This document shows positions 4,939-57,741 of a DNA stretch of 64,000 bases, in pieces. Position numbers and translations under genes: made by a program. Numbering within the stretch: the first letter of the stretch is position 1; each line of letters opens with the position of its first letter. Source of the DNA: Nitrososphaeria archaeon (GTDB taxonomy: Archaea; Thermoproteota; Nitrososphaeria; JACIWG01). A model generated the notes under the pieces. That model was not told the DNA's origin, did not search any database, and saw only the letters and a program-made list of their open reading frames with translations. The stretch is taken from assembly GCA_050011875.1 (NCBI GenBank), contig JBEKIG010000010.1:24499-88498 (forward strand). The letters run 5' to 3'.

Positions 4939-5028
4939 GGCCTCCGTGGTGTAGTGGTAGCATAATGGCCTGTGGAGCCGTGGGCTCGGGTTCGACAAAT
5001 TAAACGTTCGAAAATCCCGACGGAGGCC
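4939..5028 (+). tRNA. tRNA-His(GTG) with encoded G-1 and an 18-nt intron at 59/60 (4997-5014)
   Basis: Acceptor G-GCCTCCG/CGGAGGC-C; anticodon arm ATGGC-CT GTG GA-GCCGT; T-stem TCGGG/CCCGA encloses 25 nt that fold into a BHB. Confidence 0.93.
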
Positions 5029-15314: not shown

Positions 15315-15364
15315 GGTTAAAAAAAATATAGCGTACTATAATAATTGGATGTTAATTATTATGG

Positions 15365-15439
15365 TAGCGAGGGGTGGATTTGAACCACTGATCTGCGGGT
15401 TATGAGCCCGCCGGGATAACCTAGCTTCCCCACCTCGCT
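15365..15439 (-). tRNA. Initiator tRNA-Met(CAT)
   Basis: AGCGAGG/CCTCGCT acceptor (A1:U72), GCGGG-CT CAT AA-CCCGC anticodon arm; CCA encoded at 15364-15362. Confidence 0.95.
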
Positions 15440-17667: not shown

Positions 17668-17962
17668 ATGAACATACGCCGGTGGACAGGTTACGGAAGA
17701 AATCCTGTGGAAACTCCTTCCTCCGAGTAAAAGCGTGGCGCTGAGAAGCGCAGCGGTAGACCGTTGGCAACGGAACAGAAACGACACCAACCTAGACGCA
17801 TGACGATGATAAATATTTGAGAAGGTCTAGCAATTGGGTTAAACGGCCGACCCACGCGGAGCAAGACCAAATAGGGCGATGTGCATTTACTCAAAGTCCA
17901 GGTAGGTCGCATAGTCTAATACTGTCAAAACAGAAGAAGGGTTACAGCCGGCTTATGTTCAT
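17668..17962 (+). ncRNA. rnpB: RNase P RNA
   Basis: Terminal P1 ATGAACATA..GCCGG / CCGGC.TATGTTCAT; CR-I GTGGAAACTCCTTC pairing with CR-V AACAGAAGAAGGGTTAC; ACAGAAA and GGAGCAAG conserved blocks. Confidence 0.93.
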
Positions 17963-38940: not shown

Positions 38941-39039
38941 CGCCGGGGAAGGGACTTGAACCCTTGAAACGGTAGAGCCGTTACCGGCTATCTTGTTGGA
39001 TCTCGAGGCCGGCCCTTTCGACCACTCAGGCACCCCGGC
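38941..39039 (-). tRNA. tRNA-Ser(CGA) with 12-nt canonical 37/38 intron (38990-39001)
   Basis: GCCGGGG/CCCCGGC-G, CCGGC-CT CGA G|ATCCAACAAGAT|A-GCCGG, long variable arm. Confidence 0.93.
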
Positions 39040-51778: not shown

Positions 51779-53239
51779 ATGCGAGATTTAGAGTCTATAA
51801 TAGAAGAAATTTTACGTAAAAGGCCAGAGATCTCCAGAGAAAATATTCTTCTACTAATTCATGAAAAAAAGGATAATATTGGAAGCGGATATTTGACCGA
51901 TACTGGGGCGGCATATCTAGTAGCTGCTGATCTAGGGTTAACTTTGGATTTTGAACTTCCATACGGATTAGAAATTAAAGATCTATATGTTGGAGCTAAT
52001 TCAGTAAATTTAAGTTGTAGGGTTTGTTCTGTCTCAGAACTAAAGAGCTATAAAAAACATGACGGTACAGAAGGCAGTCTCATATCTTTAACAGTTTTTG
52101 ACAAGACGGGTTTTATAAGGTGCAATCTTTGGGATTCTAAGGCTGAGGAAACACAAAATATGAACCTTAAACCTGAAGATGGAATTTTGATTGGAAAAGC
52201 CTATGTTCGATCTGACTTTAACAATTCTCCATCTTTGCATGTTGGACAAAGAAGTACAATAGTAAAGATTGAAAATGAGGATCTGTTATCAAAACTTCCG
52301 ACACTGAAGGATATCGCTATTCCTCTCGATGATTTTGTTACTCAGCAAGGTCTTTTTTGTTTAAAGGCAATAGTGAATTCCCTGCCTACAACTTCTTCTT
52401 TCTCTAGAAAAGATGGTTCACAGGGTAACGTTGAATCTTTTTTTATAGGCGGTTTAAGGAAGGATATTAAACATCGTATTGTATTATGGTTGTCCTTGAA
52501 CACTTCTAAAAATATCCCTCTTGTTGGATCGCTAGTAGTAATTTGCCCTTTAAAGATGAAACCCCAAATGACAGGAGATATCGAATTTCATGGTGATGAA
52601 AAAACAATAATTATTCAGCTTGCAGAAGAATTTTTGTCGTACACCCCAAAAAAGATGATTAAATCATCACTCCGGTTATTATCGATTGGTGTACCCCAAA
52701 AAACTAAGAAAGGCTCCGATTCGGTAAACGCTCTAGTGCTAACCGAAGATGGAAGGATGTTTTCTTTGATTGGGTTAAATGAATTAGTGCCTTTTCTACT
52801 TTCAATGAAGATAGGTGACGTTATTGAGGGCTCGTTTACCTTTATAGATAAGGATAAACTGCTTTGTACAGATGTTAATAAAATAAGCAAGAAAAACAAA
52901 GCCAGTCCCTTTGATATTTCGAATCAATATCAAAAAATATCAGATATAAAATCAACCATTAATGAGAATAAAAAGTTTTTCTTGAAAGCTGTTGCAATAT
53001 CTCAGGCAACTCAAAGAGAGGTTACCTCAAGGAATGGAGAAAAAATAATTCTCTCAGAACTCCTAATAGGGGACGAAACAGATGAAATCAATTTAATAGC
53101 TTGGAGAGGTCTATCAAAACTAATAGATAAGATATCCCCTGGAGAGCGACTGATTATTAATGGCGTAATGCTTAAGACAAAACCAACTTTTACACTGGAA
53201 TTCAAATCCTTTTCCTCAATCATAAAGATTTCTGAATAG
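51779..53239 (+). CDS. rpa: Replication protein A / multi-OB-fold ssDNA-binding protein
   Basis: GYLTDTGAAYLVA, DKTGFIRCNLW, IGDETDEINLIAW OB folds. Confidence 0.85.
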   Translation: MRDLESIIEEILRKRPEISRENILLLIHEKKDNIGSGYLTDTGAAYLVAADLGLTLDFELPYGLEIKDLYVGANSVNLSCRVCSVSELKSYKKHDGTEGSLISLTVFDKTGFIRCNLWDSKAEETQNMNLKPEDGILIGKAYVRSDFNNSPSLHVGQRSTIVKIENEDLLSKLPTLKDIAIPLDDFVTQQGLFCLKAIVNSLPTTSSFSRKDGSQGNVESFFIGGLRKDIKHRIVLWLSLNTSKNIPLVGSLVVICPLKMKPQMTGDIEFHGDEKTIIIQLAEEFLSYTPKKMIKSSLRLLSIGVPQKTKKGSDSVNALVLTEDGRMFSLIGLNELVPFLLSMKIGDVIEGSFTFIDKDKLLCTDVNKISKKNKASPFDISNQYQKISDIKSTINENKKFFLKAVAISQATQREVTSRNGEKIILSELLIGDETDEINLIAWRGLSKLIDKISPGERLIINGVMLKTKPTFTLEFKSFSSIIKISE

Positions 53240-57464: not shown

Positions 57465-57540
57465 TGGGGTCGGTGGGATTTGAACCCACGATTTCACGGT
57501 CCCGAGCCGTGTAGCCTGAACCATGCTAGCTGACGACCCC
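57465..57540 (-). tRNA. tRNA-Pro(CGG)
   Basis: GGGGTCG/CGACCCC acceptor, CACGG-CT CGG GA-CCGTG. Confidence 0.95.
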
Positions 57541-57607
57541 CCTAACATCGATATCAAAAGGATAACCATATATACCCTTATTAAGTCTAAAAAAAATCGC
57601 CGAGAGC

Positions 57608-57710
57608 GCCGAGATACCATTTCGCTCGAGAGCTCAGCTTGGTCAGAGCGTTGGACTCATAATCCAGAGGCCGCGGGTTCGAAACATTCGCGAGAAGCCC
57701 GCTCTCGGCA
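57608..57710 (+). tRNA. Elongator tRNA-Met(CAT) with two introns: 8/9 (57616-57630) and 59/60 (57684-57696)
   Basis: Spliced form GCCGAGA-TA-GCTC..GAGC-G-TTGGA CT CAT AA TCCAG-AGGCC-GCGGG TTCGAAG CCCGC-TCTCGGC-A is a normal cloverleaf; both junctions fold as BHB-like motifs. Confidence 0.85.
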
Positions 57711-57741
57711 TTAACATTATCTAATTTTATAGAAAGTAAAA

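Follow-up and report, generated by a model that had tools for sequence, protein, structure and literature searches.

A stretch of 64,000 nucleotides (nt) from contig JBEKIG010000010.1 of a Nitrososphaeria archaeon, hereafter the window, carries at positions 57608-57710 of its plus strand what is very probably a gene for the elongator tRNA-Met(CAU), which is interrupted by two bulge-helix-bulge (BHB) introns and would need splicing. The first of these introns lies at tRNA position 8/9, and just upstream of the gene stands a copy of the acceptor 5′ strand that accompanied this intron wherever we found it. We propose, giving the idea about even weight, that the copy serves as a leader and decoy, a sink for the 3′ acceptor strand that would let the true 5′ strand form the BHB. 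The prevailing view allows an archaeal tRNA intron at any site able to form a BHB; to our knowledge, almost no introns have been reported where the BHB must compete with the acceptor stem. The 8/9 intron occupies such an acceptor-competing site in an essential single-copy tRNA and has been kept in at least two uncultured Nitrososphaeria lineages.

Structure of the predicted tRNA-Met gene

An earlier note on this DNA had pointed out 15 extra nt (57616-57630) between GCCGAGAT (57608-57615) and the AGCTCAG that starts at 57631, and we found this arrangement as it described it. From there exon 2 runs through the D-arm, the anticodon arm with CAT at 57658-57660, a 5-nt variable loop, the T-stem 5′ strand and most of the T-loop, ending with TTCGAA at 57683. 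At that point, tRNA position 59/60, a second intron is inserted, which the earlier note had overlooked, and exon 3 completes the gene without an encoded CCA (Table 1). When both introns were removed by coordinates, ARAGORN returned a 75-nt tRNA-Met(cat) with every stem paired. The spliced form has a 7-base-pair (bp) acceptor stem, a 4-bp D-stem, 5-bp anticodon and T-stems, a 7-nt anticodon loop with CAU, U8, A9 and a UUCGA-type T-loop, and excision at the bulges gives back U8-A9 as well as a T-loop of 7 nt. ARAGORN made no call for this locus in the unspliced DNA, and the Rfam model RF00005 reached 27.6 bits on the genomic sequence against a gathering score of 29, covering model positions 9-63 only. 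Such a sub-threshold score is expected of a gene interrupted at 8/9 and 59/60, and the prediction that standard scanners may miss it was borne out for these two.

The identity of the tRNA was judged by comparison with initiators, which are marked by A1:U72 and three G:C pairs in the anticodon stem. The spliced tRNA-Met has G1:C72 and the anticodon stem UUGGA/UCCAG; its nearest match is L030, an elongator tRNA-Met from the same class that lacks introns, at 60 of 75 bases, against 46-52 for the other CAU tRNAs and the tRNA-Ile of this genome. Its exons are contiguous, in order and on one strand, unlike those of split or permuted tRNAs. A protein gene over the locus was considered and rejected; the overlapping open reading frames are all 63 amino acids or shorter.

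The BHB of the 8/9 intron has the composition that the earlier note had given it. CGAG (57610-57613) is complementary to CTCG (57625-57628), the two 3-nt bulges are ATA (57614-57616) and AGA (57629-57631), and the flanking pairs are G57608:C57633 and C57609:G57632 on the outside and C57617:G57624 on the inside. Both bulges sit 3′ of their central-helix strand, which is the canonical register. EndA cuts following the second base of a 3-nt bulge, and cuts of this kind would regenerate U8|A9 at the junction, as had been claimed; A57616 equals A57631, so the sequence alone also permits a 9/10 junction with an identical product. Among random 15-mers of window composition, a motif in the same register arose in 2131 of 400,000 (0.53%). 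The outer helix (h) has 2 bp only (1:11 and 2:10) and the inner helix (h′) amounts to one C:G pair around a loop of 4-9 nt, except in one sequence of a second lineage (lineage B, below), where it has 2 bp and a 7-nt loop. The BHB can form only while the acceptor stem is unpaired, along with the first two pairs of the D-stem, in agreement with the previous proposal that splicing needs an open acceptor stem. Since the outer helix uses bases 1-2 together with D-stem bases 10-11, the precursor would have to be cut before the acceptor stem and the D-stem form. The canonical register referred to above is that of the 37/38 intron, the central helix of which holds the first two anticodon bases (Yoshihisa 2014, PMC4090602).

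The BHB of the 59/60 intron is also in canonical register, with the T-stem as its outer helix. All of its cells were paired in the eight genomes of the family that carry the gene, one pair being U:G or U:A, and the same-register motif appeared in 3691 of 400,000 random 13-mers placed at the 59/60 site (0.92%). The BHB register would give G60 at the junction and a one-base shift would give A60. This is an ordinary Thaumarchaeota-type intron, and the tRNA-Met of another family of the same class (L009) has one there too.

Table 1. Features of the predicted tRNA-Met locus and related elements, in window coordinates
Feature	Positions	Strand	Observations
Divergent neighbour tRNA-Pro(CGG), common promoter block	57465-57540	-	Arrangement kept in 8/8 family genomes
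TATA-like box ATATATAC, candidate for a start at 57599	57568-57575	.	Invariant in 8/8 family genomes
Second TATA-like box TTATTAAG	57578-57585	+	In 8/8 family genomes, variable: TTATTAAG, TTATCAAG, TTAATAAG, TTATTAAA
Upstream acceptor-strand copy GCCGAGAGC (candidate leader or 'decoy')	57599-57607	+	Direct and inverted repeat
Exon 1, tRNA positions 1-8 (acceptor 5′ strand and U8), GCCGAGAT	57608-57615	+	Same within each lineage, 19/19
BHB motif 1	57608-57633	+	Outer helix 57608-09:57632-33; central helix 57610-13:57625-28; bulges 57614-16/57629-31; inner pair 57617:57624
Intron 1, 15 nt, position 8/9	57616-57630	+	
Exon 2, tRNA positions 9-59	57631-57683	+	Rfam partial tRNA match 57631-57691; ARAGORN cloverleaf after in-silico splicing
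BHB motif 2	57673-57702	+	T-stem as outer helix; central helix 57678-81:57691-94; bulges 57682-84/57695-97; inner pair 57685:57690
Intron 2, 13 nt, position 59/60	57684-57696	+	
Exon 3: G (position 60), CCCGC (T-stem 3′ strand), TCTCGGC (acceptor 3′ strand), A73 discriminator	57697-57710	+	
Archaeal RNase P RNA	17674-17956	+	Rfam RF00373, 199.3 bits

The interrupted gene is the only elongator tRNA-Met found in the assembly

The assembly comprises 2.64 Mb in 119 contigs and is 97.2% complete with 4.8% contamination. The question raised by the earlier note, whether this is the only elongator Met tRNA of the genome, was answered in the affirmative for the assembly: there is no other, and just two further CAU tRNAs are encoded, an initiator and an Ile2-like tRNA. 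With introns allowed, ARAGORN made 49 tRNA calls in the assembly, two of them with CAU. The initiator, at window positions 15362-15439 of the minus strand, shows A1:U72 and the anticodon stem GCGGG/CCCGC; its CCA end is encoded. The second CAU tRNA lies on another contig, has a canonical intron and begins with GGGCCCA, and it matches tRNA-Ile(GAU) in the anticodon arm and at 55 of 76 bases overall. A regular-expression scan for a CAU anticodon arm followed by a T-loop gave 11 matches, among which only the candidate and the initiator were tRNA-like. In seven relatives, too, this single tRNA-Met gene is what a search recovered.

The enzymes that such splicing would call for are present in the assembly. 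There are two EndA paralogues, matched by PF01974 at 98.8 and 80.7 bits and encoded in separate open frames (186 and 182 amino acids); by their number and size they may form an (alpha-beta)2 enzyme of the broad-specificity type. RtcB is encoded with a score of 565 bits. Further tRNAs of the genome that scanners miss or mislabel (His, Leu-UAA and Arg-CCU) have non-canonical introns and make the anticodon set complete. Non-canonical tRNA introns are routine in this organism.

The 8/9 intron is conserved in two lineages

A DNA search of 40 relatives recovered the locus, including both introns, in seven of the nine other genomes of the family, and the two genomes without it were 76% and 77% complete. 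Alignment revealed that the exons are nearly invariant and that the intron loops vary, with the BHB-forming bases kept. A scan of one genome per species yielded seven records with the motif, all metagenome-assembled (six of Nitrososphaeria archaeon, one of uncultured archaeon), and a metagenome scan of at least 120 loci contributed at least six further loci of this family with both introns.

The metagenomes also contained a second lineage (lineage B), the tRNA-Met of which has the acceptor GCCGGGA and an 18-nt insertion at 8/9, together with extra introns in the anticodon stem and the variable region and none at 59/60. Lineage B comprises four of the five sampled genomes of genus g30 (family f2) and at least five metagenome loci, its 8/9 intron being 17 or 18 nt long. 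One metagenome locus (L116) has the same acceptor as the window's gene and introns at 37/38 and in the T-loop, with none at 8/9. A pattern of tandem acceptor strands was matched in 27 of 401 genomes sampled evenly across the class. Twelve of these matches are tRNA-Met genes of this kind, namely those of this genome and seven others (family f1) and of the four g30 genomes, and the remaining 15 genomes had unrelated sequence among the matches listed. Altogether, the 8/9 intron was found in at least 19 distinct sequences from two Nitrososphaeria lineages, 13 from lineage A, to which the window's gene belongs, and six from lineage B.

Over the 19 distinct sequences, the 8/9 BHB was paired in 133 of 133 cells, compared with 4-33% when the partner was slid out of register. 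Between the lineages, the acceptor pair 5:68 changes from A:U to G:C and the intron strand opposite base 5 changes along with it: base 5 and its intron partner form A:U in 13 sequences and G:C in six, while a G:U pair at base 4 occurs in one further sequence. The covariation score of the motif was matched by none of 500 shuffles. Family A alone, with 232 of 232 cells paired and zero two-sided changes, was uninformative on covariation. A genome of genus g3 (G003, locus L007) carries a third intron, 21 nt long, at 45/46, between the anticodon stem and the T-stem; it starts with AC, ends with GGAA, has the central helix CCAG:CUGG and is built like the other two introns.

A copy of the acceptor 5′ strand accompanies the 8/9 intron

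The upstream GCCGAGA copy to which the earlier note had alluded is real: CGCCGAGA occurs at 57598-57605 and again at 57607-57614. What that note had overlooked is that the copy is conserved and covarying. Together with G57608, the copy is complementary to 57700-57709 at 10 of 10 positions. It was present in all 19 intron-bearing sequences, 0-3 nt before G1, and in all 19 the eight pairs between leader and 3′ strand were standard; these were counted by script, as the MAFFT alignment misplaces the copy. The lineage-B copy, GCCGGGAG, matches that lineage's own acceptor, its A to G change being accompanied by U68 to C68. Lineage-A copies vary only by A to G substitutions facing a U, at position 5 in two sequences and at position 7 in five, and this G:U variation is seen even between two genomes of one genus. 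In the spacer just upstream, about half of the positions differ between genera g1 and g2, and the trailers are unalignable between genera.

A copy matching at least 6 of 7 positions was lacking in the 20 bases upstream of each of the 49 other tRNA genes of the genome, where the best match in register was 5 of 7. An exact copy was likewise missing from nine tRNA-Met genes without the 8/9 intron. Seven of them, three belonging to other f2 genera and four to other families, were scored by script, and two, L116 and L025, were inspected by eye. Among the seven scored controls, the best acceptor match was the CCCGGGG that lies 12 nt upstream of L023 (genome G020), at 6 of 7, probably by chance in a GC-rich genome. 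At the level of sequence, the copy is tied to the 8/9 intron by exclusive co-occurrence, by variation that preserves pairing and by joint change with the acceptor.

Two other repeats were noted. CGAGAGC occurs at 57601-57607 and at 57627-57633, from the end of intron 1 into exon 2, and its complement GCTCTCG lies at 57701-57707. The second CGAGAGC was rejected as part of any mechanism, as it is confined to genus g1 and the relatives have CGAAAGC. On a metagenome contig (L156), a class II tRNA gene with anticodon GGA is preceded, at a distance of about 100 nt, by a second copy of at least its first 21 nt, the kind of direct repeat that integrating elements leave.

Promoter elements and the predicted transcription start

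The distance from the end of the ATATATAC box to 57599 is 23 nt, and by manual count the box begins, with its first T, 30 nt ahead of the copy in g1 as well as in g2. This spacing between box and copy is kept in the two genera despite two offsetting indels. In this genome, an unconstrained motif search of the tRNA promoters settled on no TATA box, and a seeded search produced a weak model with low scores for both candidate boxes.

Lineage B has a single clear TATA box, TAAATATA, which by our own register lies 22-24 nt from the first G of the copy and 30-32 nt from G1. For calibration we used the lineage-B genome G047, in which 24 of 30 tRNA genes had a motif score of at least 5; in these 24 the distance from box to G1 was 22-47 nt with a median of 26, and it fell between 22 and 28 nt in 18. 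The calibration and the lineage-B spacing together lead us to expect that transcription starts where the copy does, give or take about two bases. A two-way promoter block, GATAACCATATATACCCTTAWTAAR (window 57562-57589), lies between the divergent tRNA-Pro(CGG) and tRNA-Met genes and holds the two TATA-like boxes in all eight family genomes.

Folding calculations

In the minimum-energy fold of 57595-57715, the copy and not the true 5′ strand pairs with the 3′ end. For a transcript starting at G1, the calculated probability of the true acceptor stem was 0.87-1.0 and that of the central BHB helix about 0, both in 8/8 genomes. When the transcript started with the copy, the true acceptor stem had a probability of at most 0.13 in 8/8, and the central BHB helix reached 0.51-0.94 in the four genomes of g2. 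Forcing the complete BHB cost 10-16 kcal/mol without the copy and 5-10 kcal/mol with it. We do not count this cost as support, given the shuffle controls, in which the native leader was only slightly better. A nascent hairpin of 26 nt had the central helix in its minimum-energy fold at -3.1 kcal/mol. These calculations allow the decoy model without proving it.

A decoy leader as a candidate aid to splicing, and the alternatives

As the copy is located at the predicted start site, a 5′ leader is its simplest reading, and we propose that the primary transcript would start with the copy (57599-57607). The leader would pair with the emerging 3′ acceptor strand, so that the BHB hairpin would not be displaced, and the true 5′ strand would be held in that hairpin with the 8/9 intron until EndA and RtcB act. 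EndA would cut each 3-nt bulge past its second base and RtcB would join the exons, giving the 75-nt tRNA with U8-A9 restored. Once the exons are ligated, strand exchange would bring the 3′ strand onto the true 5′ strand, the cloverleaf would form and RNase P would remove the leader. Such a decoy would have been kept since before the two Nitrososphaeria families diverged, or would have arisen twice.

Several points weigh against this model. We infer splicing, the junctions, the start site and the existence of the leader from sequence, and the same holds for the role of the leader and the order of the maturation steps. The inner helix of the 8/9 BHB is one C:G pair. The covariation amounts to one substitution event between two lineages, though a two-sided one, and if the two lineages had each gained copy and intron independently through a duplicating process, no selection would be needed for the match between copy and acceptor. 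The TTATTAAG box ends 22 nt before G1 (57608), a spacing as good as any; a start from this box, at about 57608, would leave the copy untranscribed, and the survey of tRNA promoters in this genome was undecided between the two boxes. In lineage B, the G047 model scored the tRNA-Met box at 2.8 in a register 20 nt before the copy. In the folding calculations, the central BHB helix had a probability of at most 0.04 in the window's own gene and three others even with the copy, and the full BHB still costs 5-10 kcal/mol there. Shuffled leaders of the same composition had a mean cost within about one standard deviation of the native one, and 3-22 of about 100 shuffles reached the native helix probability. 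Finally, the nascent BHB hairpin could be cut co-transcriptionally, in which case the leader would be unneeded.

This last point belongs to an alternative that we regard as possible though somewhat doubtful, namely that the 8/9 intron is spliced and the copy is inert in the RNA, either a remnant of duplication or integration or a part of the promoter, with the BHB cut co-transcriptionally before the 3′ strand exists. The central helix in the minimum-energy fold of the nascent 26-nt hairpin, the near equivalence of shuffled leaders in the folding model and the box at 57578-85, which predicts a start at G1 in this genome, are all consistent with it, and direct repeats of tRNA 5′ ends are known to mark the integration of mobile elements (Sugahara 2012, PMC3293823). 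A neutral remnant of 8-10 nt should decay, however, whereas in the 13 lineage-A sequences the copy has changed only by A to G substitutions that preserve pairing, and in lineage B it tracks the change of the acceptor. Moreover, lineage B has no TATA box nearer G1, and the 30-nt distance between the TATATAC box and the copy is the same in g1 and g2 despite the offsetting indels.

A junction that uses the upstream copy, a possibility raised in the earlier note, we consider unlikely. It would make the copy (57599-57605) the mature acceptor 5′ strand of a leaderless tRNA, with G57606 as base 8 and a 24-nt intron, 57607-57630, that includes the proximal GCCGAGAU. The predicted start of lineage B does fall on the first G of the copy, the eighth base of the copy is G in 19/19, for lineage B a BHB of equal formal quality can be drawn that uses the copy, with outer and central helices unchanged and one C:G pair inside, and the minimum-energy fold of 57595-57715 pairs the copy with the 3′ end. 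Yet U8 is near-universal in tRNA and would here be replaced by G8, and lineage A would be left without an inner helix, G57608 and G57624 being unable to pair. The perfect conservation of the proximal GCCGRGAU would go unexplained as well. Within each lineage this strand is the same in 19/19, and across lineages it stays in Watson-Crick pairing with the 3′ strand, whereas the copy tolerates G:U at positions 5 (2/19) and 7 (5/19); the proximal strand is therefore the more constrained of the two, which argues that it is the mature one. We hold it to be very improbable that a tRNA-like sequence in decay or without function lies here, its insertions left in place, and that the draft assembly lacks the real elongator tRNA-Met gene. 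An assembly in 119 contigs with the completeness and contamination given above leaves room for a missing gene, and the unspliced locus does score below the Rfam gathering threshold; but across two families, in 19 distinct sequences, its exons are near-invariant and its intron loops variable, and both insertions are in exact BHB register. The absence of another elongator Met from the assembly, the same single gene in seven relatives, and the intron-bearing His, Leu-UAA and Arg-CCU tRNAs, which scanners likewise miss or mislabel and which complete the anticodon set, also speak against a pseudogene.

If the decoy model is true, the leader copy would be a new kind of cis-acting helper in tRNA maturation, an RNA folding device dedicated to keeping an intron at a place that the tRNA fold does not tolerate. 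It would also account for one class of tRNA-Met genes that go uncalled in metagenome-assembled genomes, and the tandem acceptor-strand repeat would offer annotators a simple signature.

Other intron-bearing tRNA genes in this genome

Four additional tRNA genes were encountered in this genome. The tRNA-His(GUG) gene, at window positions 4939-5028 of the plus strand, has G-1, C73 and a T-loop insertion of about 18 nt in which GTTCGA is duplicated; neither ARAGORN nor Rfam at its gathering score reported it in the window. On another contig (C7), positions 51955-52060 of the minus strand hold an Arg-CCU gene with the anticodon loop CUCCUAA and a D-loop insertion of about 41 nt flanked by repeated GCGCAG, which ARAGORN mislabels as a tRNA-His with intron and Rfam covers at positions 10-63 only. 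The same contig carries, near 4579 on the minus strand, a tRNA-Leu(UAA) with a D-arm insertion and no ARAGORN call. Back in the window, Rfam gives a 99-nt intron-bearing tRNA at 38941-39039 on the minus strand, which ARAGORN calls as Ser-CGA in intron mode only.

Comparison with known systems

Non-canonical BHB introns, tRNAs with several introns and short introns of the Thaumarchaeota type are established (PMC4090602, PMC8450103). The positions listed for tRNA introns extend from 20/21 to 59/60, with 3/4 as an extreme case (Yoshihisa 2014, PMC4090602). The earlier note had not placed 8/9 among the known positions, and the text of that review does not name it. A literature search likewise returned no text naming an 8/9 intron, in a setting where the slash notation is unsearchable and the primary position catalogues and figures were not covered, and the phrase 'positions 8 and 9' led, judging by titles and abstracts, only to papers on modification and structure. 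The tRNAscan-SE 2.0 paper (PMC8450103) gives intron counts, and positions were not found in its searched text and supplement; in a 2026 preprint on Asgard archaea, insertions in the acceptor stem and at junctions are classed as 'other'. Nor did the texts searched describe an upstream acceptor-strand copy accompanying an intron. New here is the conserved upstream acceptor copy in all 19 intron-bearing sequences, for which we do not assert priority.

The 59/60 and 8/9 introns fit the general picture of non-canonical archaeal BHB introns, with two EndA subunits and several introns per tRNA gene. They come from the same class of organisms as the Thaumarchaeota-type introns treated in tRNAscan-SE 2.0 (PMC8450103) and, like those, are very short with a minimal inner helix. 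The direct repeats left by integration (Sugahara 2012, PMC3293823) resemble our case in that a copy of the tRNA 5′ end stands upstream of an intron-bearing gene. Here, however, the copy is 8-10 nt long, lies 0-3 nt from the gene with no element between them, and has been kept in at least five genera, with changes that leave its pairing intact. Split and permuted tRNAs (Nanoarchaeum, Caldivirga, Thermofilum; Chan 2011, PMC3218864) also rely on sequence outside the mature tRNA that pairs and so enables a BHB, and the clue to them was an unusual distance between promoter and tRNA, as it is here. In contrast to these, the window's gene is contiguous and in normal order, and its copy is proposed to occupy the 3′ strand and not to build the BHB. 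A further parallel is the 3/4 intron of Thermoproteales (Sugahara 2008, as cited in PMC4090602), which is also short, with two 3-nt bulges and a 4-bp helix, and the motif of which likewise uses acceptor-stem bases and is incompatible with the mature fold. The tRNA-Met described here differs from it in the position of the intron, 8/9, in belonging to Nitrososphaeria rather than Thermoproteales, and in the acceptor copy that stands upstream of the gene.

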